The notes: generated by a model not told the origin, from the letters alone. DNA of 64,000 nucleotides from an uncultured Planctomycetales bacterium (GCA_964474085.1 CAYYRJ010000013.1:797-64796); one strand, 5' to 3'. Positions 36,273-52,529 are shown, counted from the stretch's first letter. Program-made: numbers and translations.

Positions 36273-37538
36273 TTGCTCATGGACAAACTAGTCATTGAAG
36301 GCGGTAAAAAACTTGCTGGCGATATTAAGGTCAGCGGCTCTAAAAATTCGACCTTGCCGATTTTGGCAGCCACCCTTTTAACCGACGAGAAATGCGTCAT
36401 TCACAACGTTCCTAAGCTGCGCGACACTTTAACGATGATCAAGCTTTTGCGTTCGCTGGGAAAAACGGTCGACTACAACAATAATACTGCAGTTATCAGC
36501 GGCGCGGCCAACAGCTCGACGGCGGAATACAAACTTGTCTCGACAATGCGCGGCTCGTTTTGCGTGATGGGACCGTTATTGTCAAAGTTTCGTAGCGCTA
36601 AAGTTTCTCTGCCCGGTGGATGCGTTATCGGGATTCGACCAGTTGATTTGCATATTAAAGGTTTTAAAGCTTTAGGGGCGACGATTGAAGTTGAAGGCGG
36701 TTATGTGATTGCCAAAGCCCGAGTGTTAAAAGGGGATTTGATTTATTTGGGCGGTGTTTTTGGCCCGTCGGTTTTAGCTACTGGCAATGTGATGATGGCC
36801 TCTGTTTTGGCAACAGGAGAGACGATCATTGAAAGCGCGGCCTGCGAGCCGGAGGTTGAGGAGCTCTCTGAATTTTTGATCAAAATGGGCGCCCATATCG
36901 AAGGCAAAGGGACCTCTCGGCTCGTCATTCGAGGAGTTAAACGTTTGCATGGCGCAGAATACACTATTGGCCCGGATCGTATTGAAGCCGGCACGTTTGT
37001 TCTTATGGCGGCTGCGACACAAAGTACGCTGACAATTCGCAATGTCAGGTATGCCCAGCTTCTGGTTTTGATGGACCGCTTGGAAGCGGCCGGCGTGCGT
37101 TTTAAAAAAGGAAAAGATTCTCTGACGGTCATTGGTCCCAAAAAGCTAAAGCCGGTCAGTGTGACGACGTATCCCTATCCGGGTTTTCCGACGGACTTAC
37201 AGGCGCAGTTTATGGCGCTTATGGCGATTACTCCGGGAGTCAGTGTGATCAATGACAAAGTTTTTCCGGACCGGTTTATCCACATTGCGGAGCTTAATCG
37301 GATGGGAGCTAATATCCGCCGGGACAGTGGGGTCGCGATTGTCGAAGGGGTCAAGACGCTTTATGGGGCGCCGGTCATGGCTTCGGATTTGCGGGCGTCG
37401 GCTGCTTTGGTTTTGGCTGGTTTAGCCGCCAAAGGCAAAACCGAAATTCATCGCATTTATCATTTGGAACGCGGGTACGAAGATTTGGAAGCCAAACTTA
37501 AAAAAGTCGGTGCTGTCATTTACCGCGAAAAAGAATAA
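36273..37538 (+). CDS. murA: UDP-N-acetylglucosamine 1-carboxyvinyltransferase
   Basis: 421 aa. EPSP-synthase fold. KLxIxGGxxLxG N-terminus. Confidence 0.95.
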
Positions 37539-37542
37539 TCTT

Positions 37543-38115
37543 ATGTTGCTTATCATCGACAATTTCGATTCGTTTACGTATAACCTTGTTCAGTATTTTG
37601 GCGAGCTTAAGGCACAGATGAAAATTTTTCGCAACAACGCTTTGACGGTTGAGAAAATTCGTAAACTAAAACCTTCCCGCATCGTGATCTCGCCGGGCCC
37701 CGGCCGGCCGGAGGATGCGGGCGTGACCGTCGAAGTTATCCGAGAGTTTAGCGGCAAAATTCCTATTTTAGGCGTTTGTTTGGGGCATCAGGCCATTGGC
37801 TATGCGTATGGCGGAAAAATTATTGGCGCTAAACATCTGATGCACGGGAAGACCTCCCCGATTGCGCACAAGGGGACGGATATTTTTAAAAATCTCGACA
37901 ACCCTTTTGAAGCGACCCGTTATCACTCGCTGGTCATTGACCCTAAATCTTTGCCGCAGTGTTTGGAAATTACCGCGTGGACGAAGGATAAAGACAAAGA
38001 AATCATGGGCGTGCGCCACAAAAATTTTCCGCTGTGGGGCGTGCAATTTCATCCGGAGTCTATTCTAACTACGTCGGGAATGGGTATCTTAAAAAACTTC
38101 CTAAAGCTTTCATAA
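37543..38115 (+). CDS. trpG: anthranilate synthase component II (glutamine amidotransferase); trpG/pabA type
   Basis: [15 protein letters not shown]-terminus. GVCLGHQ catalytic Cys. HPES His-Glu. Start set at ATG 37543. Confidence 0.85.
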
Positions 38116-38120
38116 ATTTT

Positions 38121-39137
38121 ATGGATGCGTATATTCAGAAATTACAAAATCGCCAGGATTTGACAGAAGGCGAAATCCAGGCTGTTATGCGTTTGATCAT
38201 GTCAGGTGATCTGCCGCATCAGTCGATGGCGGCATTTTTGATGGCGCTCAACGAAAAGTCTCCCTCAATTGAGGAGATTACCGGCGCGGCAAAAATTTTG
38301 CGCGATTTTTCGCTCGAAGTTAACACCAAACATCCGGTTGTCCTGGATACCTGCGGAACCGGCGGGGACAAAAAGGGCACGTTTAATATTTCGACGACGG
38401 TGGCTTTTGTCGTTGCGGGTGCTGGTGTGGTTTTAGCCAAACACGGCAATCGATCGATTTCAAGCCGCTGCGGCAGCGCCGATGTGCTCGAAGCTTTAGG
38501 CGTGAATATTAGCATCGATCAAAAATATCTAGGCGAGTGTTTAGATGAAATCGGGATCGCATTTTTGTTTGCACAAAAATTGCATCCGGCGCTCAAAAAT
38601 GTTGCCGCTGTTCGAAAAAGTTTAGGCACAGAGACCATTTTTAATATTCTCGGCCCGTTGCTTAATCCGGCAAAAGCCACGCATCAGATGATGGGCGTTT
38701 ATAGCCGAGATTATGTTGAGCCTTTGGCACGGGTTTTAAAAAATTTGGGGCTGCGCCGAGCTTTTGTCGTACACGGCAAGGACGGGTTAGATGAAGTGAC
38801 GACGACGACACAGACGTTTGTCAGTGAATTTAACGGCCGTGAAATTTTAAGTTATGAAATTGATCCTCTTGAATTGGGTTTTTGTTTGGCCAAGGAATCC
38901 GATTTAAAAGGCGGCGATTTGAATGTTAATGCGGGGATTGTTTTGGACATTTTAAAAGGGGCATCCGGACCGAAACGGGATATTGTCGTCTTAAATGCGG
39001 CTTGTGCTTTGTATACGGCAGAAAAAGTTGCAAATATTTCCGACGGGATTGCCTTAGCGTGTGATTCAATCGATAGTGGCAAGGCTTTGAAAAAATTAGA
39101 CGAGTTGAAAGTTTTTACAAATGGTATCGATTCATGA
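38121..39137 (+). CDS. trpD: anthranilate phosphoribosyltransferase
   Basis: DTCGTGGD and KHGNRS motifs. Start set at ATG 38121. Confidence 0.9.
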   Translation: MDAYIQKLQNRQDLTEGEIQAVMRLIMSGDLPHQSMAAFLMALNEKSPSIEEITGAAKILRDFSLEVNTKHPVVLDTCGTGGDKKGTFNISTTVAFVVAGAGVVLAKHGNRSISSRCGSADVLEALGVNISIDQKYLGECLDEIGIAFLFAQKLHPALKNVAAVRKSLGTETIFNILGPLLNPAKATHQMMGVYSRDYVEPLARVLKNLGLRRAFVVHGKDGLDEVTTTTQTFVSEFNGREILSYEIDPLELGFCLAKESDLKGGDLNVNAGIVLDILKGASGPKRDIVVLNAACALYTAEKVANISDGIALACDSIDSGKALKKLDELKVFTNGIDS

Positions 39138-39925
39138 AACGAGATTTTTTAAAAGAGATCGTCGAGTATAAAAAAGAATTGCTCGCTCAAAAGAGCGGCT
39201 ATTATGCGGCGCTTAAGAAGAACGTCAAAACCTCCCCGCACAGCCGCTACGGTCTTTTTAAAAAAGCCATCGAAAAGCCCGGTCGTATCAATTTGATCGC
39301 CGAAATTAAAAAAGCGTCCCCGTCGGTGGGAATTATCCGCGAGCCTTTTGATTTGACCGGTTTGGCAAGGACGTATGCGGAAAATGGGGCGGATGCGCTT
39401 TCGGTTTTGACGGAAGATAAATATTTTTTAGGCAAACCGACGTATATTAAAAGGGTAAGCGAAGAGGTTCTGTTGCCGGTTTTGACCAAGGATTTTATTA
39501 TTCACGAACATCAGATTTTTGAAACGTTTTGTCAGGGCGCCAGCGCGATTCTTTTGATTGTTGCGATTTTAGAGGATGCTTTGCTCAAGGACTTGATCCA
39601 GGTCGCTTCGGATCTTGATATGGACTGTCTCGTCGAGGTCCATGACGAAAGTGAACTTTTTCGGGCGCTTAAAAGTGGCGCAGAAGTCATCGGGATTAAT
39701 CACCGCAATTTAGCAACACTGACCATTGATTTAAGCGTTAGTGAAAAATTAGTGCCGCAAATTCCTAAGGGAAAAGTGATCGTGGCTGAGAGTGGGATTA
39801 AGACTCATACGGAAATTATGAAGTTGCAAGCATTGGGCGTTAACGCGGTTTTGATCGGGGAAAGTTTTTTACGTTCTGCCGACGTCGGCGCAAAAGTTAA
39901 GGAGATTATGGGGGTTAGGGGATAG
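39134..39925 (+). CDS. trpC: indole-3-glycerol phosphate synthase
   Basis: TIM-barrel IGPS blocks (IAEIKKASPS, INHRNL). Its stop codon lies inside a GGGGTTAGGGG repeat. Confidence 0.9.
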   Translation: MKRDFLKEIVEYKKELLAQKSGYYAALKKNVKTSPHSRYGLFKKAIEKPGRINLIAEIKKASPSVGIIREPFDLTGLARTYAENGADALSVLTEDKYFLGKPTYIKRVSEEVLLPVLTKDFIIHEHQIFETFCQGASAILLIVAILEDALLKDLIQVASDLDMDCLVEVHDESELFRALKSGAEVIGINHRNLATLTIDLSVSEKLVPQIPKGKVIVAESGIKTHTEIMKLQALGVNAVLIGESFLRSADVGAKVKEIMGVRG

Positions 39926-39990: not shown

Positions 39991-40623
39991 ATGTTAAAAG
40001 CTAAGATTTGTGGGATTACGGATACAAAGGATGCTCTATTGGCCGCGTCTTTAGGCGCATGGGCGTTGGGGTTTATTTTTTATAAAAAAAGTAAACGTTT
40101 CATCGGGCCATATAAGGCGAAGAAAATCATTTCTGATTTGCCGCCGTTTGTGACACCCGTCGGAGTTTTTGTCGACCAAAAGCAAGGAGCGGTCAAAGAG
40201 ATCGCGGAGTTTTGCGGCTTGAGAGTATTGCAATTTCATGGTGAGGAAACGCCGGATTTTTGTAAACGTTTTGACAAATACAAAATTATCAAGGCCTTTC
40301 GTGTCAAAGAAGATTTTGATATTAATGTTTTACGTCCGTACAAATCGCTTGCGAGTGCTTTTCTTTTTGACCGCCATGAAGAAGGCGTGCAGGGCGGGAC
40401 GGGCAAAACTTTTGACTGGAAACTGATCAAGGAAGCCAAAAATTTTGGCGTTCCGATCATTCTCTCTGGCGGCATACATTCGAATAATGTCCGTAGCGCG
40501 TTTGAAGAGATCAAGCCTTATGCGGTGGACGTTTCAAGCGGGGTGGAGGATGCTCCCGGCAAAAAAAGCGAGCGCTCGCTAACTGAATTTTTTAGCCAAT
40601 TGGTTCTTCCGGTCTCTGTTTAA
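39991..40623 (+). CDS. trpF: phosphoribosylanthranilate isomerase
   Basis: KICGIT N-terminus. LQFHGEE block. 210 aa. Confidence 0.9.
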   Translation: MLKAKICGITDTKDALLAASLGAWALGFIFYKKSKRFIGPYKAKKIISDLPPFVTPVGVFVDQKQGAVKEIAEFCGLRVLQFHGEETPDFCKRFDKYKIIKAFRVKEDFDINVLRPYKSLASAFLFDRHEEGVQGGTGKTFDWKLIKEAKNFGVPIILSGGIHSNNVRSAFEEIKPYAVDVSSGVEDAPGKKSERSLTEFFSQLVLPVSV

Positions 40624-40923
40624 TGCCATGTGCAAGTTTTATTTACCGACTTGGGAAAGTCCTTTTAGGCTCAATTGTTTTGCGCCTCTATGGCGCCATT
40701 CGCCTTAAAAGGGCTTCCCGAGTCGGGGCTTCATTTGCCATCGCGTTATTTAGCTAGATTTGAAAAATTTTTAAAGAAAATTTGCCTTTCTCGGGGAGTT
40801 TCTTTATACTTATGTGTATCTTATCTGTATTTATCTTTTGTAGCATCTCCATTTGACAGTATTTATTTGTTTTATCTAAAGAGGAAAAACTCTGTGCAGT
40901 CTCTCTTTCATCGAGATAGTCTA

Positions 40924-43704
40924 ATGTTTTTCAGAAAAATAATCAGCAGTTTTATTGTGTTGACGTTTTTGACGTCGCTTGTCGTCGTTCCGGCAGGGGG
41001 CCAGGTTTTTCTGGATGTCGCAACGTCCATTAACGCAAATGCTGGGTATCAGCCCCCCGTACTTTTAGGACTTAAAATCCATCCCGAAAATCCGCTTTTG
41101 TTTGATTTTATCGTCGACCAAGGGCAATCGAAACTTTCGACAGACGAACTAAAAGAGGAAACAACTAAGCTCGTCAAATATTTTCTCGCGGCGTTAACCA
41201 TTCCGGACAAAGAAGTTTGGGTCAACCTTTCGCCGACCGAAAAAGATCGAATTATTCCTGATGTTTTGGGCCAGACGACGATGGGCAAAACGATGCTTGA
41301 GCAGGATTATGTTTTAAAGCAATTGGCCGCCTCGCTCACCAATCCCGAAACGGATTTGGGGAAGAAATATTGGGAGCAGGTTAATGGGGCAAGGACGCTA
41401 GACGTTAGACGTTGGACGTTGGAAAAAACACCCAGCGTCCAGCCTCCAGCGACCAGCGATTTTAACAAGGTTTGGATCATGCCGGAAAAGGCCGAAGTTT
41501 TGGAAAGTAACGGGATTGTTTTGGTTGGCGAAAAGCGGTTGAAGGTGATGCTGGATGAGGAATATCAAGCCGTAGGGGCGTATTGCAATACGCCCCTACA
41601 GAAAAATGTTATTTCCTCCCAAATTTTCCGCACCACCATCCTTCCAACCATCGAAAAGGCCGTCAATGAAGGCAAAGAATTTGCCGACGTGCGTCAGATT
41701 TACAATTCCGTTATCCTCGCCGCATGGTACAAAAAGGCTTTAAAAGAAAGTTTGCTGGGCAAGATTTATACTGACAAAGGCAAAGTTGCCGGTGTTGAAA
41801 CCGACGACAAAACGATGAAACAACGCATTTATGAGCAATATTTAGCCGCCTTTAAAAAAGGCGCGTACAACCTGATAAAAGAAGAAGCCGACGAAAATGG
41901 TGATCTAATTCCGAGGAAATATTTTAGTGGGGGAATTGAGATTGCTGCATTTGGCGATGGGGCCAGGTCTTCATTGACAGAAAGAACCGTTTCATTACGA
42001 CAAGTAGAAGGGAGGATTGAAGGGATTAGTTCCAGCGTCGCTGTGACGGTCCAATTAGCCGCTACTAAAGATGAGTCTGGCGTGGTTTCCAGTGCCGCAA
42101 CGCAAGGAGAAGATGTTATTTTCGCCGCCGCCTCAAACTCTCTTCGACAAGATCCCAGCAGAAAAGTCAGTTATGGAAATACAAAATACCATTTGAGCAC
42201 AGTTATTAAAATTTTAGAAGAACTTGTTAATTATTGGGATGGTCAAGAGGATAATCCTGATAAATTTGCTACTCATGGCGTGCACGGCAAAATAATCACG
42301 AGTGTTCAACTGCTCTCTGCTCCCGGCGTTACTTTTTCGCTTGATGATATCCGTTTTAAATCCATATTTTTGGATAATTTAGTTAAACAGTTGAAAGTTC
42401 AAAATATCAAACGTCTTGACCCGATTAGGCTCTTTCAAGTTTGGGTTTCTCAAGATTTCAAATTAAATTTTGCTATTTCTAATTCTCAGAGAGTTAAAAA
42501 TATTACCATCGAGGATGCTAGGGCGATTTTTTTTAGAGACCTTTTACCGCTTATTAGGGATGAACTTCAAAAGTATTCGGACAATGCTGACCCCCAGCAA
42601 GCCTATTGGAGGACTGTTTCGGAAAGGACATCGGTTTTACTCAGTGGCCCTGTACAAAGAATCCAAGCAGTTTTGGATGCAAGCTATGATAAATTTCATC
42701 AAACAGGACACTTTCATGATTTAAACGCAATTTTATCGGATCCCTCCAGGGGCAGGTTGCGAGAAAGCTTTTCGAATATCCAAAATGTTATCGCCGAGGT
42801 TTTGGGTGACACTCAGAGTTTTGCATCCCAAAAAGCAGTGTTAGTGGGACAGCAAACCTATCCTCAGACAGAGAAAGCGGCCTATGTCAACGAAAGTTTT
42901 ATTCACGCAACACTTGTGAGTGATATTTTTTCAAGTTGGAAACAGAATGTGCGATTTCGAGAAAAACTAGCTTCAGAAACTTCACGAGTAGAAAAGCCAC
43001 TTGTTCAGGTCAAAGGTGTCCATCTGATGCCTGATTTAAGTGTTGCTTTTGAATTACAGGAAGTCAGGTGGAGACAGAACTCGAATGTTTTGAAAACCGT
43101 TAAAGAAACAGCAGCCCAACTAGCAGAAGATAACGGCCAAGCGCCTCGATATTTTCCAGACACGCTTGCCGCAACTGTTGCATATTTGTTTGGAAATGAT
43201 ATCAGTCGCAGCCAGCTTTTAGAACTTAATAGTCGTTTTAGTGAAATTAATATTCAATTGCAAAAAGATCCGATTACGTTTTTTATTGACGAAATGCAGT
43301 TGCAAAGCGGAACAAAAAAAGGATTTGTGGTTACTCGCAGTAAAACGCTCAAATTTTCCGCTTCGAGCGGGGTTGATGACAAGGTGAATGTTGCCTCAGC
43401 GCCCGTCGGAGGGCTTGACCGCCAAGTCGGCGGTATCGACTTTGACCCGACGAGCATGAATTTGCAAATTAAGCGCGACGGACGTGGTGTGCCGCTGCCA
43501 TTGCCGCAACAGAATTTGGAACAGATCAATATTCAGGGCTTGTTTCCCGTTATCATCAACATTACACCAATCAATGCGCAGACTTTGCCGATCTTTTTAG
43601 GGTTTACCCGCCCAAATTCTGGCGGTGGGCAGTCCTTTGAATCTTTTGGCGGGCAAGTGCCCAAAGAACCGGCCAAGGAAATTGAACAAGTCGCGGGGAC
43701 CTGA
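40924..43704 (+). CDS. large secreted protein A (926 aa). Its N-terminal ~400 aa domain is paralogous to protein B. Function unknown.
   Basis: Signal peptide at MFFRKIISSFIVLTFLTSLVVVPAGG. The N-terminal domain aligns with ORF 46345-50502 (WVNLSP...DRIIP; KVWI(M/V)P(E/D)KA). Contains an in-frame REP and an in-frame heptad-repeat hairpin. The ORF-track start 40675 is probably upstream junk. Confidence 0.7.
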   Translation: MFFRKIISSFIVLTFLTSLVVVPAGGQVFLDVATSINANAGYQPPVLLGLKIHPENPLLFDFIVDQGQSKLSTDELKEETTKLVKYFLAALTIPDKEVWVNLSPTEKDRIIPDVLGQTTMGKTMLEQDYVLKQLAASLTNPETDLGKKYWEQVNGARTLDVRRWTLEKTPSVQPPATSDFNKVWIMPEKAEVLESNGIVLVGEKRLKVMLDEEYQAVGAYCNTPLQKNVISSQIFRTTILPTIEKAVNEGKEFADVRQIYNSVILAAWYKKALKESLLGKIYTDKGKVAGVETDDKTMKQRIYEQYLAAFKKGAYNLIKEEADENGDLIPRKYFSGGIEIAAFGDGARSSLTERTVSLRQVEGRIEGISSSVAVTVQLAATKDESGVVSSAATQGEDVIFAAASNSLRQDPSRKVSYGNTKYHLSTVIKILEELVNYWDGQEDNPDKFATHGVHGKIITSVQLLSAPGVTFSLDDIRFKSIFLDNLVKQLKVQNIKRLDPIRLFQVWVSQDFKLNFAISNSQRVKNITIEDARAIFFRDLLPLIRDELQKYSDNADPQQAYWRTVSERTSVLLSGPVQRIQAVLDASYDKFHQTGHFHDLNAILSDPSRGRLRESFSNIQNVIAEVLGDTQSFASQKAVLVGQQTYPQTEKAAYVNESFIHATLVSDIFSSWKQNVRFREKLASETSRVEKPLVQVKGVHLMPDLSVAFELQEVRWRQNSNVLKTVKETAAQLAEDNGQAPRYFPDTLAATVAYLFGNDISRSQLLELNSRFSEINIQLQKDPITFFIDEMQLQSGTKKGFVVTRSKTLKFSASSGVDDKVNVASAPVGGLDRQVGGIDFDPTSMNLQIKRDGRGVPLPLPQQNLEQINIQGLFPVIINITPINAQTLPIFLGFTRPNSGGGQSFESFGGQVPKEPAKEIEQVAGT
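41402..41469. repeat. heptad minisatellite arranged as an inverted pair (long hairpin), in-frame inside the protein A gene
   Basis: aaggacg ctagacg ttagacg ttggacg ttgg, then aaaaaacaccc, then cagcgtc cagcctc cagcgac cagcg. Encodes GARTLDVRRWTLEKTPSVQPPATS. Confidence 0.6.
41572..41599. repeat. REP element embedded in-frame in the protein A gene
   Basis: gtaggggcgtattgcaatacgcccctac, encoding VGAYCNTPL. Confidence 0.8.
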
Positions 43705-43725
43705 GATTTTTCGGTCCGTGTGCCC

Positions 43726-43754
43726 TTGTTTCTCAAAAAGGTATGTGGTATGGT
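43726..43754 (+). promoter_or_regulatory. candidate promoter for the structured RNA below
   Basis: TTGTTT, then a 17-nt spacer, then TATGGT. Weak match. Confidence 0.25.
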
Positions 43755-43760
43755 TTGACT

Positions 43761-44029
43761 AAGCCGATAAAGGCAAACCCGTCGAAAGGCGGGGACGTCC
43801 CGTGAAAGGGATCGCGCGACCTTGATCTGTGGATCGCGCGGCAAAGCTCCAGACCTACATTGTCTTCAAACCGGAAAGGCCCGTGAAGTTGTGGGCAACG
43901 TGTAGACACGGTGAAGGTGATGGGACAATACGGTGGCTGAGTTGCCGAAGGGGAACCGGCGCTCTGCGTTTCGTGCCGGCTTTATCGGCCCCCTCTCTTT
44001 CACCCTTAAATGTTTAAGGGTTTTTTTAT
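43761..44029 (+). ncRNA. candidate structured RNA (about 270 nt) of unknown class, ending in an intrinsic terminator
   Basis: GC-rich non-coding stretch. Long-range pairing between aagccgataaagg (5') and ccggctttatcggcc (3'). Ends with the terminator hairpin cccttaa-atgt-ttaaggg followed by T7. No credible ORF. Confidence 0.3.
44003..44029 (+). terminator. rho-independent terminator
   Basis: 7-bp GC-containing stem cccttaa/ttaaggg, atgt loop, followed by ttttttt. Confidence 0.6.
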
Positions 44030-44062
44030 TCTTAGGCAAATTTCCTTCAAATCTTATTCGTA

Positions 44063-44071
44063 TGTTATAAT
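44063..44071 (+). promoter_or_regulatory. extended -10 element (TGtTATAAT) 7 nt upstream of the zinc-ribbon gene ATG; possible leaderless transcript
   Basis: tgttataat at 44063-44071, with the ATG at 44079. Confidence 0.35.
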
Positions 44072-44078
44072 ATCGCCC

Positions 44079-44381
44079 ATGTCCGAAAAATTATTACGGG
44101 TTTACAAGCCGTTTGATTTGCACAAAGTCAAAGAGCATCTTTTGATTTACGGGGACTTGTCCGGCCAATGCGCGTATTGCCAAAATATGGATGTTAAGTT
44201 GGATATGGTCTCGTGCCCAAATTGCCGCACGGATTTTCGCTACGTGGCTTTTCGCCATGTTCATCATCATATGCCCAAAATTCTAAACATCAGCGCCACT
44301 CGCCATGATTTAACGATCATCGATTACGACGATTACAGCCGTAGCTTAGGCGCCAAAAAAGCAGAGGATTTTTTCAAATGA
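44079..44381 (+). CDS. small zinc-ribbon protein, unknown function
   Basis: CAYC...CPNC Cys4 motif. The ATG lies 7 nt after an extended -10 box. Confidence 0.5.
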   Translation: MSEKLLRVYKPFDLHKVKEHLLIYGDLSGQCAYCQNMDVKLDMVSCPNCRTDFRYVAFRHVHHHMPKILNISATRHDLTIIDYDDYSRSLGAKKAEDFFK

Positions 44382-45517
44382 TCAACGATCAACGTCTTAT
44401 TTCTTTAACCCAAAAAGTGATTAGTTTTAATAGCGAAAACCCGCCGGGCAATGAATTGGCTTTGGCGAATTTTATCGAAGAGGATATGCGCTCTTTGGGG
44501 ATTGAAGTTAAAATTCATACTTTTGAAAAGAACCGGCCCAATATCGTTGCGACCTTAAAGGGGACAGGTCACAACGCGGCTAAGAATTCGGTTTTGCTCA
44601 CCCCCCATTTTGATACGGTTCCCATCGGGGGAGGATGGAAGTTTGATCCGTTAGGCGGCCAGATCAAGGCCGGAAAAATTTATGGCCGCGGGGCAAGTGA
44701 TGATAAAGGAAATTTGGCTTGCTGTATGGAAGTGATGCGCAGTTTGGTTGAGGATAAGGTGAGTCTCCAAAACGATGTGATTATGGCTGCCACCGTCGAT
44801 GAAGAAACAGGTAGCAAGGCCGGGATTATTCCGCTTTTGGATAAGAAAATTTTAAAGCCGGGGTTTGGATTGATTGTTGACTCAGACGAATTTTATACGA
44901 TCATCGCCCAAAAAGGTTTGCTGCATACGCGCATTCAGATTTTTGGCAAGAAAGCGCATGGGGCCTACAATTGGCGGGGGGTCAATGCCATTGAGCAGGC
45001 GGCAGAGGTGATACGGCTTTTAAAGGCGCATCAATTTAAATTTAAAAAGCATGCTCTTTTGCATCCGCCGACGATGAATATCGGCACGATTCGAGGAGGC
45101 GACAAGGTCAATATGGTCGCAGATTTTTGCGAGTTTTCGCTAGACACACGCTTTCTGCCGGGGATGAAATCGTCGGAGGTTTTAGCTCAGATCAAGGCTA
45201 TCGTCAAAAAAGTGACGCCCAAATTTAAAATTATTATCGACGATTTACAGCAGCCTTATGAAATTGCCGGGGAGCATCCGTTTGTAAAAACTTATGTGGA
45301 TACGGCCAAGAAAATGAAAATCCCCGCGCAGGTTAAGGCCAGCGAAGGAGCCACGGTGATTACGTTTTTTAAGAAACACGGAATTCCTGCTTTTGCGACC
45401 GGTTATGGCGCTAAAGGTACGGCGCACACGACCGACGAATACGCCAAGGTTAAGACGCTCGTTAAAGGGGCGAAATTGATGGAAAGGTTTATTAAAGAAT
45501 TTGATCAAAGGGGTTAG
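44378..45517 (+). CDS. M20-family metallopeptidase (ArgE/DapE-like)
   Basis: HFDTVP and GRGASDDKG metal-binding motifs. 379 aa. Confidence 0.85.
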   Translation: MINDQRLISLTQKVISFNSENPPGNELALANFIEEDMRSLGIEVKIHTFEKNRPNIVATLKGTGHNAAKNSVLLTPHFDTVPIGGGWKFDPLGGQIKAGKIYGRGASDDKGNLACCMEVMRSLVEDKVSLQNDVIMAATVDEETGSKAGIIPLLDKKILKPGFGLIVDSDEFYTIIAQKGLLHTRIQIFGKKAHGAYNWRGVNAIEQAAEVIRLLKAHQFKFKKHALLHPPTMNIGTIRGGDKVNMVADFCEFSLDTRFLPGMKSSEVLAQIKAIVKKVTPKFKIIIDDLQQPYEIAGEHPFVKTYVDTAKKMKIPAQVKASEGATVITFFKKHGIPAFATGYGAKGTAHTTDEYAKVKTLVKGAKLMERFIKEFDQRG

Positions 45518-45531
45518 GGGTTGGGGGTTGG
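45510..45531 (+). other. G-rich tract (GGGG-TTA-GGGG-TT-GGGGG-TT-GG) containing the M20 peptidase stop codon
   Basis: Three G4 or longer runs plus a GG. Weaker quadruplex potential than the tract at 39911. Confidence 0.4.
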
Positions 45532-45566
45532 ACGCTGGAGGATGGACGCTAGACGTTAGACGCTGG
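45528..45566. repeat. heptad minisatellite (YTRGACG)n following a GGGGTTAGGGG tract
   Basis: ttggacg ctggagg atggacg ctagacg ttagacg ctgg. Confidence 0.6.
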
Positions 45567-45587
45567 TTAAAGATAAAGAAGAAAAAG

Positions 45588-46334
45588 ATGAAAAAAGAAT
45601 TATTTTATCGAGCCTTGTTAAGTTTGATCATTAGTGTCACATTTTGTCCGATGGCAAGGGCGGCTAATGATGTCAATGACTTTGTCGGCGAGAAAATTAC
45701 CTATTCGATCAAGCAAATGGGCTTTAAGGCCGGCGAGGCGGTTTTAAGTTTTGAAGGCGCTGCGACCCGTGAAAATAAAGATTTTATGCTCATTGTTTTT
45801 AAAGCCAGTGGCATGAATTTTATGGATTCGGAAAAGATTTATGCGGATCCCCAAACGCTTTTTCCGCAAATTGTTGAGCGCGACCTTAATATTTTTGGCA
45901 AGAAAGAGCAGATTGTCGAATACTATGAGCCGCAAAACGGCAAAGTTCGCGTGGTCAAAACAGCGTCGGGAAAGACCACCGAACAGGTGATTACAAAAAA
46001 AGGGGAGCTGGACAATATTTACTGTTTTATTTACCGTTATCGGCGTGACGCTGATTTTAAGATGGGAGAGAGTTTGGCCATCAATCTTCCCACGATGGAT
46101 TTGCGGATTAAGCTGACAGAAAAAGTTGATGTTGCCGCTGGCGGCAAGAATTATCAGGCCTTTTTTATGCAAAGCACTCCGTCAAAATATAAATTGTGGT
46201 TTGATGTCAGCCGGCAAAAGATTCCGCTTCGCATCGACGGCGCTGTCGGTGTAGGCAGCACGACGATGACAATGAAAAGCTACGAAACTAAAAGCGCAGT
46301 CGCGTTTTTGGCCAATGAAGTTTTTAAAAAATAA
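45588..46334 (+). CDS. secreted hypothetical protein (possibly DUF3108-like)
   Basis: Signal peptide MKKELFYRALLSLIISVTFCPMARA. Start set at ATG 45588. Family assignment is tentative. Confidence 0.5.
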   Translation: MKKELFYRALLSLIISVTFCPMARAANDVNDFVGEKITYSIKQMGFKAGEAVLSFEGAATRENKDFMLIVFKASGMNFMDSEKIYADPQTLFPQIVERDLNIFGKKEQIVEYYEPQNGKVRVVKTASGKTTEQVITKKGELDNIYCFIYRYRRDADFKMGESLAINLPTMDLRIKLTEKVDVAAGGKNYQAFFMQSTPSKYKLWFDVSRQKIPLRIDGAVGVGSTTMTMKSYETKSAVAFLANEVFKK

Positions 46335-46344
46335 ACCCGAATAA

Positions 46345-49300
46345 ATGGATATGAAAAAAAAGATCAGCATTTTTATGCTGGCTGTGTTTATGGTGCAGAC
46401 CGTCGTCCCGACGTGTTTTGCGCAAATGGCGCTTGAAAGCCGTCTTTTGCCTACGTCGATGGGGGTGCTTAGCAACCATTTTCAACCGCCGGTTTTAAGT
46501 GCGATTAAGATAGACGCAGCTGATCCGTTTCATTTGGAATTTGTTATTGATCCTGGAACTTCGACGGGAAACGGTGAAGAACTCAAAGGGGAGACGACGC
46601 GGCTTGTTAATTATTTTTTGGCGGCCTTAACATTACCAGAGAAGGACTTGTGGGTTAATTTGTCACCGTATGAGGTGGATCGAATTATTCCTGCTGAATT
46701 TGGGACAACTCAGATGGGCCGCGATCTTTTGGCGCAGGATTATTTGTTAAAACAGATAACGGCTTCTTTGATGGTTCCCACCGGGGACGTTGGCAAAAAG
46801 TTTTGGGATGAAATTAATCGTCAGGTGAGGGCGAAATACGGGCAAGTCGAGATTTCGGTAAACACATTAAATAAAGTGTGGATTGTGCCGGATAAGGCTC
46901 AGATTATTCAGGAGAGAGGCGTTGCTTTTGTCAGTGAGAGCCGTTTAAAAGTTTTATTAGAGTCGGATTATTTGGCGTTTGAAAAAAATGCTCTGCGAGA
47001 AGTCGATAGCCGCAAAGAGGATGTAAAGCAGAAGTCTCTTAACGATCAGGAAAAGACCAAAGAAATTCTTCGAGAAATTGTCCTTCCTGTTCTTGAAAAG
47101 GAAGTTAATGAAGGGCGTAATTTTGCACCTTTGCGTCAAGTGTATCATTCGCTTATTCTCGCGGCATGGTATAAACAAAAAATTAAAAGCGGCCTGCTGG
47201 CAGCGGTTTATGTTGATCAAAAAAAAGTTGCCGGAATTGATAGTGTTGATCCGCAAATGGCTCAGGGAATATGGGCGCAATACGAAGAATTGTTTCGAAA
47301 AGGGGTTTATAACTCTGTCAGAGAAGAGTTGGACCCGGTTTCGCAAGAAATGATTCCGCGCAAGTATTTTATGGGAGGTTTTGGCTTTACTGCTATTGAT
47401 AAGGCGCTTGTTACATCGTCGGGGATTACGTCTGTTCATCGAACATTTGCGGGAATTCTTGCCGGGGTGCAGCTTTTGTCTGCCCTGCCGTCTTTGAGCT
47501 ATGCACAAGATGCCGCAAATACCGATGCGGCAGTTAACCCGGGCCTTGTTATTGAAAAAGTTCCTGCGGCTGACCCGCGATCAGCGTTTGAGCAACAGAG
47601 AAAAGATTATTGGCTTAACGTTGCGCAGTCTGACTCGGATCGCGTTTTTTCTCGCGCCGTTGAGTTTATGGACGAACCGTTTGCAATTGAAATTCTTAAA
47701 GAAGCGGTTAGAAGTGAAAATACTTTGTCCCTTCAGGGAGGCGTTTTTCGTGATGCTTACCGTTATTTGGAATATGAAAAGGGGTGGGAATTTTTTGAGT
47801 GGTTGGCAAAAAATTATGATCGAGCGGGGTTTGTATTGGCCTCACCTGATTTTGCTAAGATAAAATCTCCCGAGCGTGTTCTGGAAATTGTTGCCAGGTT
47901 TTCGTCGGTAGAACTTTTGAATTTTATGAGTAATACGGAGAGTATGTTGAGAAATGAAGAGATGATTCGCCAGATGATAGACAAATCATCGTCGCAGAGG
48001 CTGCGTTTGATAAAGCAGATATCACAGTTGCCGTTAAAGTGGCCAGAAATAAAGTTGATGGCAGCGCTTATTCCAATGATTTTAAACAATGAAATATCAG
48101 TTTTGCAGGCGCAAGAATTGACAGGGGACGTAGACCGGTATATGAAAACTTTGTTTTCGATGTTAAAAAACCCAGCGTATGCCAGTGATCGCGATGCCAT
48201 TATTTTTCGGCTTATTGATTCATATTTTTTGTCTCTTTATTTTTATGGCACGATTTATCCCGCAAAATGGGAGCCGGCCGCTATTGACGCTTACTTGGAA
48301 AATTTTTCGACGCAGGACTTGTATTACTCGTGGGTTGGTTTGGTGCCGGGTGAACTTTATAATACCGTATTTTCCAAGATGATTGAAAAGTTAAAAGCAG
48401 ATTCAGTGAATTTTTATGATCTCCCCGAAAGTTTATTTTTTCGTGTCAATGAATCAATTTTAAACACCACAGATATGCAGAAAAAAGATTTGATGTCGGT
48501 GCTGAGTGTTAGTGATCAATTTAGATTGGTTGATCAACTTTTGAACAGATTCGAGCGGGCGCGCGCAAACAAGAACAGTTCAGTCGAGCTTTTTAAAGCT
48601 GTTTCTGTTTTTTTAGCTGAAATTAACGCGCAGGGATTTCAACCTCAAGGTCGGGAAGCAGTCGAGTTTAACCGCCTTACCGTTAAACATCAAGCGCTTC
48701 TAAACGCTTTTTTAGTTGAGATTGGAAAAGACCCGCAAGCGTTTATTGGGGAATTTAGACGAGTAAAGGACCCGGGTGTATTTGCAAAAGATCCAATCGT
48801 AAAGGTTTTTTCTAAGATTAATAATTTTTCTTTTTCGGGGATGTTAAATTTTAACCAGCAAACTATCTCAACCGATAAACTCCGGCTGGATATGGTTCTC
48901 TTATTAGATGATTTGCTTAAGGAGCGTTTGACCGTAAAAGACGCGGCCGGGATTGTTTTAGACAAAGGTCGTTTTCTTCGTCAATTAAATGACATTGCGT
49001 CCCGCTCTGCGCATTTTGCGGAAACGGGAATCAATAAACGTTTAGGTGAAATTTATATGGAGCTTATCCGCAATATTAATAATTTGCACGAATCACCCGA
49101 CGCTATAAGGTTTAAATCAGTCGAGTCGTTTTCTTCAGAATATCTTTATCGCGTTATGGTTTATGGAGAAGATGAAGTTGTCTATACAACTACTTTTAAT
49201 GGGCTGTTTAACCGTTTTTTGAAGGCTGTCGATGCGGAAGGTATTTCTTTGGATGTTGTTTTGGATAGAGTAAAAGATTTTAAATTTAGAAATTTTTTCA

Positions 49301-50502
49301 GGCTTGCCGTAACGTATGGCAGACAGGAAGAATTTTTGAAAAAAATGAGTCCGCAGAGGCGGAAAGATTTTTTAGTGCGTTTTATTGCCGGTTTAAGTGA
49401 AGAAAAAGATATGGTGTCCGAGGCGGCAATTGTTGCAGATGTGATTAACCAATTGCAGGATGAGCAGTTGGTTCAACCGCTGGCCGAGCTTATCAAAACA
49501 CAGTACCAAAAATTTGAGAACGATCGGCAAAAGCGTATTGTTTATGGTTTGCTTGCCGGATTATTTAGAGATAAACCTGTTTCCGCTGACAGAGAGTGGT
49601 TTGTCCAGATGGGTGAAGAATATAAATTATTGATTAGTAAAGAGTTGTCCTCTGCCCAGCTTTTTGATGCTAGCGGTGAAAATGTTCAGCGTTATGTTTT
49701 TTATGACGATAGCGATGCCAAGGCGTCTTTTGCGCATTTTATTGCCAGCTACAAGAATGATCCTAATTGGCGTACCGTTGCTTACGAGCAGTATGTTGAG
49801 GTAACTTCGGTTTATGGCCACAAGGTAACGATATTAGCCAACAAACCCAGAGATATCGAGAAAAGTAATTTTGCGGTCGATGAAGCTTTCAAGGTAAAAA
49901 ATAAAGTGCCCTCAGTTATTGCTCATCGAGGGCATAGTTATTTTTTCAATGGGACGATAGGCTATGTAACCCCGGATGTTGTTTTTGTTGGCGTAGGAGC
50001 TTGCGGAGGCGCCAAGAATGTCGGTCAGTTATTGGAAAATTCACCGCAAGCCCAGATTGCGGCAACAAGAGGGGTGGGCACGATGAGGATCAATGACCCT
50101 TTGTTTAAGCTGATTAATAATGATATTCGTACGCAAGGCTCTGTGTATTGGGAAAGTGTTTGGACAAGAGCGGAAAAACAGGCATGGAGCAAGACCAATG
50201 AATGGGGCAAGTATGTCGCGCCGCATAGAAACGTCATTGAGAGTTTTTTGAAATCGTATGATAATTTGATGCGATCTTCGGCCAGCTCGACTGTTGGTGA
50301 TTTGGCAACCAAAGGCGGGATTGATTTAAATGCTGTCGACGCGGCTTTGCGTATAAATTCGAGTACTCAAACTGCAGAGCTTGCGATTGATCCGGTATTG
50401 TTCGAGCAATACCGGGTATCGCCCGGATTTTATCCGGAGATTAAATTTATGCGTCCGGTTAAAAATGTGATAGAGTATTTAACCGCAGCGGACACAAAAT
50501 AA
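46345..50502 (+). CDS. giant secreted protein B (1385 aa). N-terminal domain paralogous to protein A. Long alpha-helical middle region. C-terminal His/Cys-containing module.
   Basis: Signal peptide. Roughly 400 aa align with protein A. Internal hydrophobic, signal-like segment (FAGILAGVQLLSALPSLSYAQD). C-terminal region with HRGHSYF...GVGACGG. Confidence 0.7.
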   Translation: MDMKKKISIFMLAVFMVQTVVPTCFAQMALESRLLPTSMGVLSNHFQPPVLSAIKIDAADPFHLEFVIDPGTSTGNGEELKGETTRLVNYFLAALTLPEKDLWVNLSPYEVDRIIPAEFGTTQMGRDLLAQDYLLKQITASLMVPTGDVGKKFWDEINRQVRAKYGQVEISVNTLNKVWIVPDKAQIIQERGVAFVSESRLKVLLESDYLAFEKNALREVDSRKEDVKQKSLNDQEKTKEILREIVLPVLEKEVNEGRNFAPLRQVYHSLILAAWYKQKIKSGLLAAVYVDQKKVAGIDSVDPQMAQGIWAQYEELFRKGVYNSVREELDPVSQEMIPRKYFMGGFGFTAIDKALVTSSGITSVHRTFAGILAGVQLLSALPSLSYAQDAANTDAAVNPGLVIEKVPAADPRSAFEQQRKDYWLNVAQSDSDRVFSRAVEFMDEPFAIEILKEAVRSENTLSLQGGVFRDAYRYLEYEKGWEFFEWLAKNYDRAGFVLASPDFAKIKSPERVLEIVARFSSVELLNFMSNTESMLRNEEMIRQMIDKSSSQRLRLIKQISQLPLKWPEIKLMAALIPMILNNEISVLQAQELTGDVDRYMKTLFSMLKNPAYASDRDAIIFRLIDSYFLSLYFYGTIYPAKWEPAAIDAYLENFSTQDLYYSWVGLVPGELYNTVFSKMIEKLKADSVNFYDLPESLFFRVNESILNTTDMQKKDLMSVLSVSDQFRLVDQLLNRFERARANKNSSVELFKAVSVFLAEINAQGFQPQGREAVEFNRLTVKHQALLNAFLVEIGKDPQAFIGEFRRVKDPGVFAKDPIVKVFSKINNFSFSGMLNFNQQTISTDKLRLDMVLLLDDLLKERLTVKDAAGIVLDKGRFLRQLNDIASRSAHFAETGINKRLGEIYMELIRNINNLHESPDAIRFKSVESFSSEYLYRVMVYGEDEVVYTTTFNGLFNRFLKAVDAEGISLDVVLDRVKDFKFRNFFRLAVTYGRQEEFLKKMSPQRRKDFLVRFIAGLSEEKDMVSEAAIVADVINQLQDEQLVQPLAELIKTQYQKFENDRQKRIVYGLLAGLFRDKPVSADREWFVQMGEEYKLLISKELSSAQLFDASGENVQRYVFYDDSDAKASFAHFIASYKNDPNWRTVAYEQYVEVTSVYGHKVTILANKPRDIEKSNFAVDEAFKVKNKVPSVIAHRGHSYFFNGTIGYVTPDVVFVGVGACGGAKNVGQLLENSPQAQIAATRGVGTMRINDPLFKLINNDIRTQGSVYWESVWTRAEKQAWSKTNEWGKYVAPHRNVIESFLKSYDNLMRSSASSTVGDLATKGGIDLNAVDAALRINSSTQTAELAIDPVLFEQYRVSPGFYPEIKFMRPVKNVIEYLTAADTK

Positions 50503-50525
50503 ACTTTTTTAAATATTATTAAAAC

Positions 50526-51704
50526 ATGGCACTTCCCGATAAATCAGGTCATTTTGGCGAGTTTGGCGGACAGTACGTTCCCGAGACGCTCATGTCCGTT
50601 TTAAATGAGTTGGAGACGACTTTTGCCAAAGCGCGGCGCGACAAAAAGTTTAAGGACGAATTTGCGTATTACCTTAAAGAGTATGCGGGTCGGCCGACGA
50701 ATTTGTATTTGGCCAAACGTTTGTCTAGCCATTTTAAAAATCTCAAAATTTATTTAAAACGCGAAGATTTGCTGCACACTGGTGCGCACAAAATTAATAA
50801 TACGCTTGGTCAAATCATTTTGGCCAAACAGATGGGCAAGACGCGGATTATTGCCGAGACCGGAGCCGGTCAACATGGCGTTGCGACAGCGACCGCCGCA
50901 GCGCTTTTTGGGTTGCAGTGTGAAATTTATATGGGCGCACAGGACATTGAGCGCCAGTCACTCAATGTGTTTCGCATGAAGCTGATGGGTGCTAAGGTTG
51001 TGCCGGTGACCAGCGGCTCGAAGACGCTCAAAGATGCAATGAATGAAGCGATACGCGATTGGGTCACGAATGTCCGCAATACATTTTATATTATCGGCTC
51101 GGTCGCGGGTCCCCATCCCTATCCTTTGATGGTCCGTGAATTTCAATCGGTCATCGGCCGCGAAGCTCGTCGGCAATTTTTCCTTAAGGAAAAGAAACTT
51201 CCCGATTACTTAGTCGCCTGTGTCGGCGGAGGCAGCAATGCGATGGGGTTGTTTCATGCTTTCTTTAAGGACAAGACCGTTAAAATTATTGGTGTCGAGG
51301 CTGCTGGACACGGGCTTAAGAGTGGACAACATTCGGCTGCGATTTGCGCTGGACAAACCGGTGTTCTTCATGGGAGCAAAAGTAAACTTTTGCAAACGCA
51401 CGATGGGCAAATCAAAATTGCACATTCGATTGCCGCCGGACTCGATTATCCTGGCGTAGGCCCTGAGCATTCTTATTATGCGCAGATTGGCCGTGCTCAG
51501 TATGTCGGCGTGACAGACAAAGAAGCGATTGGGGGACTTAAACTTCTTTCGCAGGCTGAGGGGATTATTCCCGCTTTGGAAACAAGCCACGCCATCGGCT
51601 TTTTGTCGCGTTTGGATAAGAATGCTAAGAAAAACTCGACGGTGATTGTTTGTCTTTCGGGTCGAGGGGACAAGGATGTTAATACGATGAAGGAATTGAT
51701 TTAG
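50526..51704 (+). CDS. trpB: tryptophan synthase beta chain
   Basis: [12 protein letters not shown]-lysine motif. GGGSNA motif. Confidence 0.95.
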
Positions 51705-51743: not shown

Positions 51744-52529
51744 ATGAACCGTATCGATAAAAAATTCAGTGAGTTAAAGCGTCAAGGCAAGAGTGCGTTT
51801 ATTGCTTTTATTACCGCCGGAGACCCGGATTTAAAGACGACGGTCGAACTCGTACTGGCTTTTGAAAAGGCCGGTGTGGACATTGTCGAGCTGGGTGTCC
51901 CGTTTTCGGATCCGCTGGCGGATGGCCCGACGATACAGGCCGCGTCAGAACGGGCTTTGCATAGTGGCGCAACGCTGCCTAAAATTTTTGAAGCGGTTAA
52001 AGAAATCCGCAAAGTTTCTGATATTCCGTTGGCTTTAATGACGTATTACAATCCGGTTTTTCATTTTGGCGAAAAGCATTTTGTTGACTCTGCAAAGTCT
52101 GCCGGCGTTGATGGGGTCATTGTGCCGGACTTGCCCCCGCAAGAAGCCAAAGACTTGATGGCCTTAAGCCGCAAGGCGGATCTTTCTACCATATTCTTTC
52201 TTTCTCCGACGACAAAAGATGAGCGGATCCCAGGCATTGCGCAGGCCTCGACGGGTTTTATTTATTATGTGTCTTTGACTGGTGTCACGGGAACAGCGCA
52301 AGGTTTGCCCAAGGATATTATGGCGCGGATTCAAAAAGCGAAAGCGACGACAACAAAGCCGGTGTGTGTCGGTTTTGGCGTTTCAACGGCGCAGCAGGTC
52401 AAGATGATTTCGCAAATTGCCGACGGAGTTATTGTCGGCAGTGCGATTGTCAAAGAAATCGACAAGCATCGCGGACAAAAAGATTTGGTTTCACAGGTTG
52501 CGGGGTTTGTAAAAAAGTTACGTTATTGA
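51744..52529 (+). CDS. trpA: tryptophan synthase alpha chain
   Basis: ELGVPFSDPLADGP motif. Confidence 0.95.
   Translation: MNRIDKKFSELKRQGKSAFIAFITAGDPDLKTTVELVLAFEKAGVDIVELGVPFSDPLADGPTIQAASERALHSGATLPKIFEAVKEIRKVSDIPLALMTYYNPVFHFGEKHFVDSAKSAGVDGVIVPDLPPQEAKDLMALSRKADLSTIFFLSPTTKDERIPGIAQASTGFIYYVSLTGVTGTAQGLPKDIMARIQKAKATTTKPVCVGFGVSTAQQVKMISQIADGVIVGSAIVKEIDKHRGQKDLVSQVAGFVKKLRY

Follow-up and report, generated by a model that had tools for sequence, protein, structure and literature searches.

In the canonical trpEGDCFBA operon, trpF is followed by trpB. Why, then, do the two genes stand 9.9 kb apart in the window, as we call the whole 64-kb stretch of assembly GCA_964474085.1 (contig CAYYRJ010000013.1) that was analysed here? 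Between the end of trpF at 40623 and the start of trpB at 50526 lie five non-trp genes and a structured RNA, in the order protein A, RNA, a zinc-ribbon protein (Znr), an M20 deacylase, a DUF3108 protein and protein B. This interruption, described in a first-pass annotation of the sequence, was confirmed by open reading frame (ORF) listing, by Pfam and NCBIfam scans and by tblastn against relatives. The same annotation took the whole interval for a single accessory insertion into a once-contiguous operon. We consider it probable, instead, that the interval is native to its Omnitrophota genome and was built up in three layers: an old unit that ends in trpBA and is preceded by a riboswitch, and two later additions, the genes for A and B, at different places. 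Every ORF read as a gene in the window, and every element mapped from trpF to trpA, lies on the plus strand.

Synteny of trpF-trpB in related genomes had been named beforehand as the test that could refute a single insertion, and the comparison revealed an ancestral arrangement for three of the five genes. A trpF scan of species-representative genomes gave seven close relatives and several distant Omnitrophota, onto which the window proteins were mapped by tblastn (L-numbers denote loci of relatives, P-numbers members of the protein family introduced below). In L005, L006 and L009, trpF is followed by Znr-M20-DUF3108-trpB-trpA-M16, with neither A nor B, and in L006 the gap between DUF3108 and trpB is 22 nucleotides (nt). 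In L087 the order runs from rpmE to trpGDCF, Znr, M20, DUF3108, trpB and trpA, again without A and B, and in L086 it is riboswitch, rsmE, DAHP synthase, Znr, M20, DUF3108, one extra gene, trpB and trpA. A metagenome pattern scan with the 5′ half of the riboswitch produced at least 120 matches, of which 80 loci were fetched; more than 20 of these carry the riboswitch, Znr and M20, followed by DUF3108-trpB-trpA wherever the contig is long enough and preceded by trpF wherever the contig continues upstream of the riboswitch. Because the trio is kept upstream of trpBA both in close relatives and in distant Omnitrophota whose trpF is 47–58% identical, synteny indicates that it is ancestral at this site. 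The idea of a ~9.9-kb accessory insertion is therefore abandoned for Znr-M20-DUF3108, which occupy the same place in relatives, and survives for A and B only. The lesson for annotation is that what seems to be an insertion into an operon can be ancestral.

Znr (44079–44381) encodes 100 amino acids (aa) with a CxxC-x12-CxxC pattern and matches Pfam zinc ribbons only below threshold; its homologs form 17 clusters, all of ~100 aa and so far found in Omnitrophota only, and M20 follows in every locus seen. Its start was corrected to 44079, since an ATG at 44010 sits in a terminator loop and the start at 44079 is conserved among relatives. The M20 protein (44378–45517), of the ArgE/DapE deacylase type, has both the catalytic and the dimerisation domain (PF01546, 106 bits; PF07687, 86 bits) and reaches 247.7 against a cut-off of 217.6 with TIGR01910; in the NCBIfam scan the equivalog-level models for DapE and ArgE stayed below their cut-offs. 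The DUF3108 protein (45588–46334), with a signal peptide, matches PF11306 over profile positions 1–209 of 209 (46.5 bits against a cut-off of 26, E 5e-12).

The distribution of A and B is quite different. Positional orthologs of A occur only in the clade of the window, L004, L003 and L007, and those of B only in L001/L002, where the ortholog is 65% identical in amino acids and the flanking genes are 89–98% identical. L003 and L001, which belong to one contig (trpB 97.6% identical), hold five members of the A/B family: three, including the A ortholog, then the riboswitch, then a fourth followed by a PhdYefM/PIN pair, Znr-M20-DUF3108, the B ortholog and trpB. In L007, trpF is followed by an A ortholog, other genes and Znr-M20-DUF3108, where the contig ends. 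When six flanking proteins were concatenated for a neighbour-joining tree, virtually all bootstrap replicates grouped ((window, L008), L007), with (L005, L006) as sister group and L009 outside, and A-type genes are confined to the ((window, L008), L007) clade. Read against this tree, gene content indicates that only A and B are lineage-restricted additions, at two separate slots, that the ancestor of the window/L007 clade acquired A in a single event, and that B was gained within the window/L001 sub-clade.

The slots on either side of the trio appear, moreover, to be hot spots of gene gain and loss, taking up family members, other secreted-protein genes and toxin-antitoxin genes: a beta-helix/lectin protein directly follows the riboswitch in L007, and L005 has two other genes before trpB; elsewhere among the close relatives the slots may be empty. 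Between the window and L001 the DNA of the flanks is 83–96% identical, and that of the central part of B 59–73%, in a mosaic pattern. Toxin-antitoxin genes were also seen just upstream of the Znr promoter, namely the PhdYefM/PIN pair (L001, 6963–7618) and what reads as a Phd-like antitoxin (L007, 16874–17146).

Does the interval carry any mark of foreign origin? The impression that it is AT-richer than its flanks reflects a real drop in GC, but a small one: A (0.438) and B (0.421) lie 1–6 points below their neighbours (0.44–0.49), GC at third codon positions is 0.41–0.43 against 0.45–0.55 (one neighbour, prmC, has 0.42), and tetranucleotide z-scores over the interval stay between −1.2 and +0.9 about the window mean, that is, at about one standard deviation. 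There is no tRNA gene in the 64-kb window, no integrase ORF in the trpF-trpB interval and no direct repeat at its borders. Gene A contains, besides, two repeats of the genome's own. The first, a hairpin element resembling repetitive extragenic palindromes (REPs) and composed of 7-nt sub-repeats, GGACGCTAGACGTTAGACG, occurs six times in the window against 0.01 expected; it stands in intergenic spacers of the trp region (34029, 39945, 45544, 51705) and, in frame, in gene A (element 41385–41448), where it falls in a variable loop of the N-terminal domain and the copy at 41393 is translated as TLDVRRWTL. The second, a 28-nt palindromic REP, GTAGGGGCGTATTGCAATACGCCCCTAC, is likewise in frame inside A (41572–41599), and its other copies (60443, 62490, 63593) adjoin genes resembling REP-associated tyrosine transposases (RAYT-like). 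The interval is native and shows no sign of foreign origin, given its normal tetranucleotides, the lack of tRNA, integrase and flanking repeats, and the presence of native REPs within A. Similar repeat-derived inserts were seen in the same variable loop in other family members.

A recently acquired single island would account for the absence of A and B from some close relatives, for their slightly AT-richer sequence and for L014, another Omnitrophota, where trpF adjoins trpB directly. However, the trio and the riboswitch are kept at the site across lineages whose trpF is only ~50% identical, A and B occupy different slots and have different phyletic ranges, and neither tetranucleotides nor tRNA, integrase and flanking repeats point to acquisition, while native REPs lie inside A. 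Of the usual hallmarks of horizontally acquired islands (deviant composition; integrase, tRNA or direct repeats; absence in relatives) we found patchy occurrence, and this for A and B only. We regard a single island as very improbable.

The structured RNA noticed among the inserted genes (43762–43989) was identified as a riboswitch aptamer. Its segment 43762–43949 matches the cyclic di-GMP class I model of Rfam (c-di-GMP-I, RF01051) at 35.1 bits, marginally above the gathering score of 35, because its P2 and P3 are separated by ~40 additional nt that form two hairpins; this insertion is shared by the window's clade. P3 is expanded as well. The orthologs in L001, L006, L007 and L009 score 38.9–40.6 bits with RF01051, that of L086 scores 63.5 bits with the clan variant RF03167, and those of 18 metagenome loci reach 59–75 bits with RF01051 or 59–65 with RF03167 (gathering score 59). 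A nearly invariant 10-bp closing helix, in which GCCGAUAAAG (43763–43772) pairs with CUUUAUCGGC (43980–43989), encloses an additional hairpin. P2, P3 and the closing helix are supported by RNAalifold, with 7 of 77 pairs compensatory among 5 close sequences and 11 of 34 among 13 distant ones. The GAAA loop of P2 is invariant, and the core segments GGCAAA, GCAAAG and UGCCGA are present in the window RNA. On these grounds we assign it to the c-di-GMP-I (GEMM-I) clan, CL00126, which bears out the suspicion of a structured RNA here. We take the ligand-contacting G20, A47 and C92 of the Vc2 aptamer to lie in the core segments, although this numbering could not be mapped reliably; an attempt to tell c-di-GMP from cyclic GMP-AMP specificity by position 20 was dropped for the same reason.

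With RF01051 and its relatives in the clan, including RF03167 (c-di-GMP-I-GGC), the window RNA shares the core segments, the GAAA-capped P2, compensatory changes in P3, a place in a 5′ leader and a terminator as expression platform. It differs in the near-invariant closing helix beyond an extra hairpin, which makes a multi-way junction, in the greatly expanded P3 and the ~40 nt inserted in its clade, and in its unusual setting, with trpF on one side and on the other a unit whose last genes are trpBA. Sequence and structure thus mark it as belonging to a known class, though in enlarged form and among unusual neighbouring genes; it is a subtype that curated models barely detect in the window's lineage.

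The expression platform is a predicted intrinsic terminator (44002–44028, ACCCTTAAA-TGTT-TAAGGGT followed by T7), found by the promoter/terminator scan and kept in L001, L006, L007 and L009. In about two thirds of the distant orthologs a U-tract comes directly 3′ of the closing helix, which suggests that this helix itself can serve as the terminator stem. The riboswitch also has a predicted promoter of its own (43726–43754), with TTGTTT at 43726–43731, a 17-nt spacer and TATGGT at 43749–43754; it is kept in the alignment of close relatives, and the predicted transcription start, at about 43762, is the first base of helix P1. In distant relatives a −10 element, TATATT, precedes by 7–8 nt the GCCGAU 5′ end, where the closing helix begins. 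A second-messenger riboswitch with its own predicted promoter inside the trp cluster of many Omnitrophota is an unusual gene association for this class. Our literature searches returned nothing relevant on riboswitches in Omnitrophota.

This subtype of the riboswitch, its 5′ GCCGAUAAAGG being identical, was also seen ahead of an operon for a glycoside hydrolase family 1 (GH1) glycosidase and a ~670-aa cyclic nucleotide (cNMP)-binding/patatin-like phospholipase protein (L090, L091, L095, L109, L129, L134, L138, L163 and others).

How is trpBA expressed in this arrangement? An extended −10 sequence, TGTTATAAT (44063–44071), lies 7 nt upstream of the Znr ATG as a candidate promoter. The motif TGnTATAAT recurs 7–10 nt ahead of the Znr ATG in the majority of the 23 loci compared, among them L005, which lacks the riboswitch, and L086, where Znr comes after the DAHP synthase gene. 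Because the extended −10 adjoins the start codon, we predict that the Znr mRNA is leaderless or nearly so and that Znr-M20-DUF3108-(B)-trpB-trpA has a promoter of its own. Within this unit the intergenic gaps are too small to hold separate signals: DUF3108 and B are 10 nt apart and B and trpB 23 nt, and in L087 DUF3108 and trpB are separated by 0 nt; the promoter/terminator scan found no convincing terminator at the B-trpB junction. As the 23-bp gap after B leaves no room for a promoter, trpB would depend on upstream transcription. Since the riboswitch would decide which upstream transcripts read into the unit, trpBA is most likely expressed from the Znr promoter together with riboswitch-gated read-through. 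It had been proposed that trpBA needs either read-through or an unrecognised internal promoter: the dependence on upstream transcription agrees with our analysis, and there is a candidate promoter, but it lies before Znr and not before trpB.

The association with trpBA raises the possibility that the trio belongs to aromatic amino-acid metabolism, for example by providing a deacylase step, and that the whole is one extended operon whose riboswitch senses a related metabolite. The trio is indeed tied to trpBA in every lineage examined, one sub-lineage has a DAHP synthase gene between riboswitch and Znr, and several orthologous RNAs score best with RF03167. For RF03167 we know of no established ligand. 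However, the RNAs fit canonical c-di-GMP-I at 59–75 bits and keep its three core segments, the same subtype precedes the unrelated GH1 and cNMP-binding patatin operon, and the M20 protein scores as a generic ArgE/DapE member; the linkage of trio and trp genes counts for little, because the genes of the whole window form a single housekeeping array read in one direction. A metabolic role of this kind seems improbable to us. The sub-lineage of Omnitrophota with rsmE and DAHP synthase between riboswitch and Znr also includes L128, L136 and L147; in it (riboswitch at L086 697–840) the array holds the first shikimate-pathway enzyme as well as trpBA.

What, then, are the two added proteins? A (40924–43704, 926 aa from its ATG) and B (46345–50502, 1385 aa) share an N-terminal region at 41% identity (E 2e-83), as the first-pass annotation had noticed, although it measures ~345–370 aa and not the ~400 proposed. 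The signal peptides seen on both were also recognised by us, read from the sequence as basic residues followed by a hydrophobic run and a site of the A-x-A type. Overlooked before was a second shared part, a ~65-aa C-terminal module that we call GGIDL. Protein A thus consists of the signal peptide, the N-domain (~aa 30–370), a central region or cargo (~aa 390–820) and a GGIDF version of the module from aa 836 (~43429–43640); the cargo is an orphan with no detectable homologs, a search with cargo and C-terminus together having matched the C-module only. In protein B the signal peptide and N-domain (~aa 30–370) are followed by a hydrophobic segment (~375–395), a helical HEAT-like region (marginal similarity to alphaRep, E 1e-3), an alpha/beta domain (~aa 1100–1290) and the GGIDL module (aa 1322–1385; 50308–50499). 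The alpha/beta domain, common to P0003–P0011, has invariant His1197 and Cys1220 and is modelled at a predicted local distance difference test (pLDDT) score above 90; a clan CD (caspase-like) peptidase was considered and rejected, as Foldseek against PDB retrieved only generic alpha/beta folds (GTPases, nucleoside phosphorylases) with TM scores below 0.35.

The two proteins turned out to be paralogs within a very large family. Searching with B retrieved over 4,056 proteins, named almost exclusively Candidatus Omnitrophota or Omnitrophica, in which the first ~350 aa are ~50% identical to B and the remainder is unrelated. A profile of the N-domain matched 8,362 clusters at 50% identity, 435–3,339 aa in length, and the domain is N-terminal in all 150 matches listed. 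The C-module (GGIDL..., IDPAML.QLQNAPGF.PVIINIQP, ..FLG) is present in 113 of 122 members examined, and a D-x-A-M/Q motif, enriched ~15-fold, follows the N-domain in 143 of 206 members and precedes the C-module in 83 of 183. The typical member therefore reads: signal peptide, ~340-aa N-domain, DxAM-type linker, hypervariable cargo, DxAM-type linker and ~65-aa GGIDL module. Among the cargo we saw HEAT, TPR, pyruvate phosphate dikinase (PPDK)-like, radical S-adenosylmethionine (SAM), methyltransferase, PP2C, kinase, phosphoribosyltransferase (PRTase), phospholipase D (PLD) and SNF2 domains. Members without any cargo were sought and discarded, the short matches being truncated contigs and the smallest complete member having 627 aa.

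The claim that the shared N-domain fits no known family has held against every search made. Neither A nor B gave a Pfam or NCBIfam match at E ≤ 0.1 beyond noise, the PDB profile search was empty, and neither module matched a profile for the type IX secretion system C-terminal domain (T9SS CTD), the two-partner secretion (TPS) domain, the autotransporter barrel, or SLH/CWB2. The structure prediction that had been suggested as a check produced an AlphaFold model of the N-domain, of mixed alpha/beta type, with no relative in the PDB (best Foldseek E 0.43). The family is uncurated and, as far as the searchable literature shows, undescribed; our literature searches found no description of it.

Two structural details deserve mention. 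The hydrophobic stretch of B (47467–47530) ends in SYAQ, resembling the N-terminal cleavage motif of the family, and has counterparts in P0001, P0002, P0003, P0005, P0006 and P0010; this stretch may be another segment that contacts the membrane or is cleaved. The idea of a transmembrane helix behind the N-domain, which would place the cargo in the cytoplasm, was rejected for the family, such a segment being found in only ~11% of members, the B lineage included. Beyond the GGIDL module, a recurring ...(L)S(M/A)R C-terminus was seen in P0007, P0064, P0080, P0109, P0113 and others, and a different tail (KEPAKEIE...) is common to A and its L007 ortholog; these tails could represent an additional signal for sorting or processing.

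Our best guess is that A and B are exported cargo carriers with common handling modules: the N- and C-modules would serve export, anchoring or processing, and the cargo would provide an activity that is quickly diversified and exchanged. Where such proteins end up is the next question. They may be displayed in the envelope, the modules anchoring variable domains in the periplasm, the outer membrane or a surface layer, for which the CWB2 (Cwp) family of Clostridioides and T9SS cargo with its C-terminal sorting domain offer models. A signal peptide combined with conserved terminal modules agrees with this, the DxAM motifs at the module borders could be processing sites, and GEMM-I riboswitches often control surface proteins: family members (L001, L092, L107) or the lectin/beta-helix protein (L007) come directly after the riboswitch, L092 and L107 having the same upstream trp genes. 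Yet many cargo domains are ATP- or SAM-dependent and unlikely to be active outside the cell, Pfam gave no match to a known sorting or anchoring domain, and the riboswitch is not general to the family. Display is a possibility that we entertain tentatively. As to the riboswitch being a trait of the family, this was rejected after finding none at the loci of three other members, nor at three more loci scanned.

The cargo is also what argues for the other destination, the interior of another cell. Kinase, PP2C, methyltransferase, radical-SAM, PPDK-like, PRTase, SNF2, HEAT and TPR domains need a cytoplasm and yet are found behind signal peptides, as though the N-domain, the C-module or both docked enzymes to a common apparatus for injection into the host or prey of these nanobacteria, putatively parasites or predators, in the manner of the shared protective antigen-binding domain of anthrax lethal and edema factors (LF/EF) or the N-domains of PE/PPE proteins. 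The thousands of variants, several per genome, and the fast divergence of the cargo fit translocated effectors, as does the neighbourhood of two members, one adjoining type II secretion system (T2SS)/type IV pilus genes and another near a secretin gene; like A and B, other members are wedged between same-strand housekeeping genes. Omnitrophota have been proposed to be host-dependent (PMC10066038), which we count in favour of effectors. In the four contexts examined, however, no apparatus is consistently linked, there is no adjacent immunity or chaperone gene, secretion is predicted from sequence, and Foldseek against PDB found no structural relative of the N-domain. Delivery into another cell is favoured by the cytoplasmic type of the cargo and held back by the absence of a linked apparatus, and we judge translocated effectors a doubtful reading overall. 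The more specific proposal, that N-domain and GGIDL module define an Omnitrophota-specific system of protein trafficking or effector delivery, with A and B as effectors destined for host or prey cells or for a dedicated compartment, is in our view unlikely. If true, it would mean the export of enzyme cargoes that are interchangeable and number in the thousands, with one of them, B, placed together with tryptophan synthase downstream of an expanded c-di-GMP-class riboswitch.

Bacteria of the phylum Omnitrophota are abundant and extremely small, have not been cultured and are suspected to live on other cells, and we know of no established mode by which they interact with a host. With at least 8,000 clusters and conserved, unassigned modules around freely exchanged enzyme cargo, the A/B family is an obvious candidate for their interaction toolkit, and a concrete target for work on structure and localisation.

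Exported cargo carriers inserted into an ancestral locus would give the following picture. The first layer, old and found widely across the phylum, would be the transcription unit Znr, M20, DUF3108, trpB and trpA, read from the extended −10 promoter and, in most lineages, preceded by a separately promoted c-di-GMP-I-class riboswitch with an intrinsic terminator. The riboswitch would gate the entry into this unit of transcripts coming from its own promoter, from trpGDCF or from A, so that a cyclic-dinucleotide signal would modulate transcription into a unit that contains B and trpBA. In the second layer A was inserted between trpF and the riboswitch promoter, and in the third B between DUF3108 and trpB, where it would now share a transcript with trpBA.

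Several points weigh against this picture. (i) Both promoters and the leaderless start are predicted from sequence conservation. (ii) The Rfam score of the window RNA is marginal, and clan variants may sense other signals, the c-di-GMP ligand being a prediction. (iii) Thermodynamic folding does not yield the ON/OFF logic of the window riboswitch, the minimum free energy structure missing the aptamer. (iv) The gain of B is bounded in time on one side only, because the L007 contig stops before the B slot. (v) The N-domain model is of moderate confidence (pLDDT 66) and that of the C-module is poor (pLDDT below 50). (vi) A large number of the cargo domains belong to ATP-dependent enzymes of a typically cytoplasmic kind, a poor fit to a simple periplasmic or surface role.

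Comparison with known systems sets the family apart. Like T9SS CTD proteins, the CWB2/Cwp family and the PE/PPE families, it has many paralogs, each with a signal peptide, a terminal module and a variable part. In contrast to them, it is conserved at both termini and has no Pfam, NCBIfam or PDB match, its cargo includes cytoplasmic enzymes, it belongs to a different phylum, and no linked machinery was identified in the contexts examined. Polymorphic toxins (Rhs, CdiA, MafB) resemble A and B in their conserved N-terminal part, variable downstream region and fast, mosaic divergence between strains. They differ in that the extreme C-terminus of A and B is conserved, trpB instead of an immunity gene begins 23 nt after B, Pfam detects no Rhs/YD, TPS or PAAR domain, and PADLOC gives no match. 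The conserved C-terminus and the position of trpB directly after B led us to rule out a polymorphic toxin/immunity system. A defence-system role was likewise set aside, as the PADLOC models gave no match.

The split of the trp genes also loses much of its strangeness when relatives are considered. As in the canonical operon, trpG (37510–38115), trpD (38034–39137), trpC (39134–39925) and trpF (39991–40623) on the one hand, and trpB (50526–51704) and trpA (51744–52529) on the other, keep orientation and internal order; the trpB and trpA orthologs match PF00291 and PF00290. Unlike it, the window's lineage has trpBA in a separate promoter unit with Znr-M20-DUF3108, and trpG comes directly after murA with no trpE between. 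In L020, L024, L028 and L049, the genes downstream of trpF resemble, by their sequence, those for pilus assembly and secretins, and no trpB lies within 10 kb. Seen in this phylogenetic context, a split trp cluster appears ordinary.

Some further features of the window complete its description. The overall order is prfA, prmC, murA, trpGDCF, A, RNA, Znr, M20, DUF3108, B, trpB, trpA and a gene for an M16 peptidase. The conserved block prfA-prmC-murA-trpG-trpD-trpC-trpF, which trpF closes, was followed by tblastn in L003–L009, L020, L024, L028 and L049, and the trpF ortholog of L087 matches PF00697 (PRAI). This block was seen to be kept even in Omnitrophota whose proteins are only 45–68% identical, and in the window (36273–38115) trpG stands straight after murA, with no trpE seen adjoining the trp genes. 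The leader of gene A (40624–40923) contains a promoter-like sequence, TTGCCT-17-TATACT, at 40782–40810, picked up by the promoter/terminator scan as a putative promoter. Protein A may start at an alternative GTG (40894), which has a better Shine-Dalgarno sequence (AAGAGGA) before it and would give 936 aa. Finally, the stretch between 60 and 64 kb stands out as the sole compositional outlier of the window (tetranucleotide z up to 4.6), and in it two near-identical 178-aa ORFs (60181–60717 and 63331–63867) were seen, which we call RAYT-like because of weak matches to IS200-like Y1 transposases.

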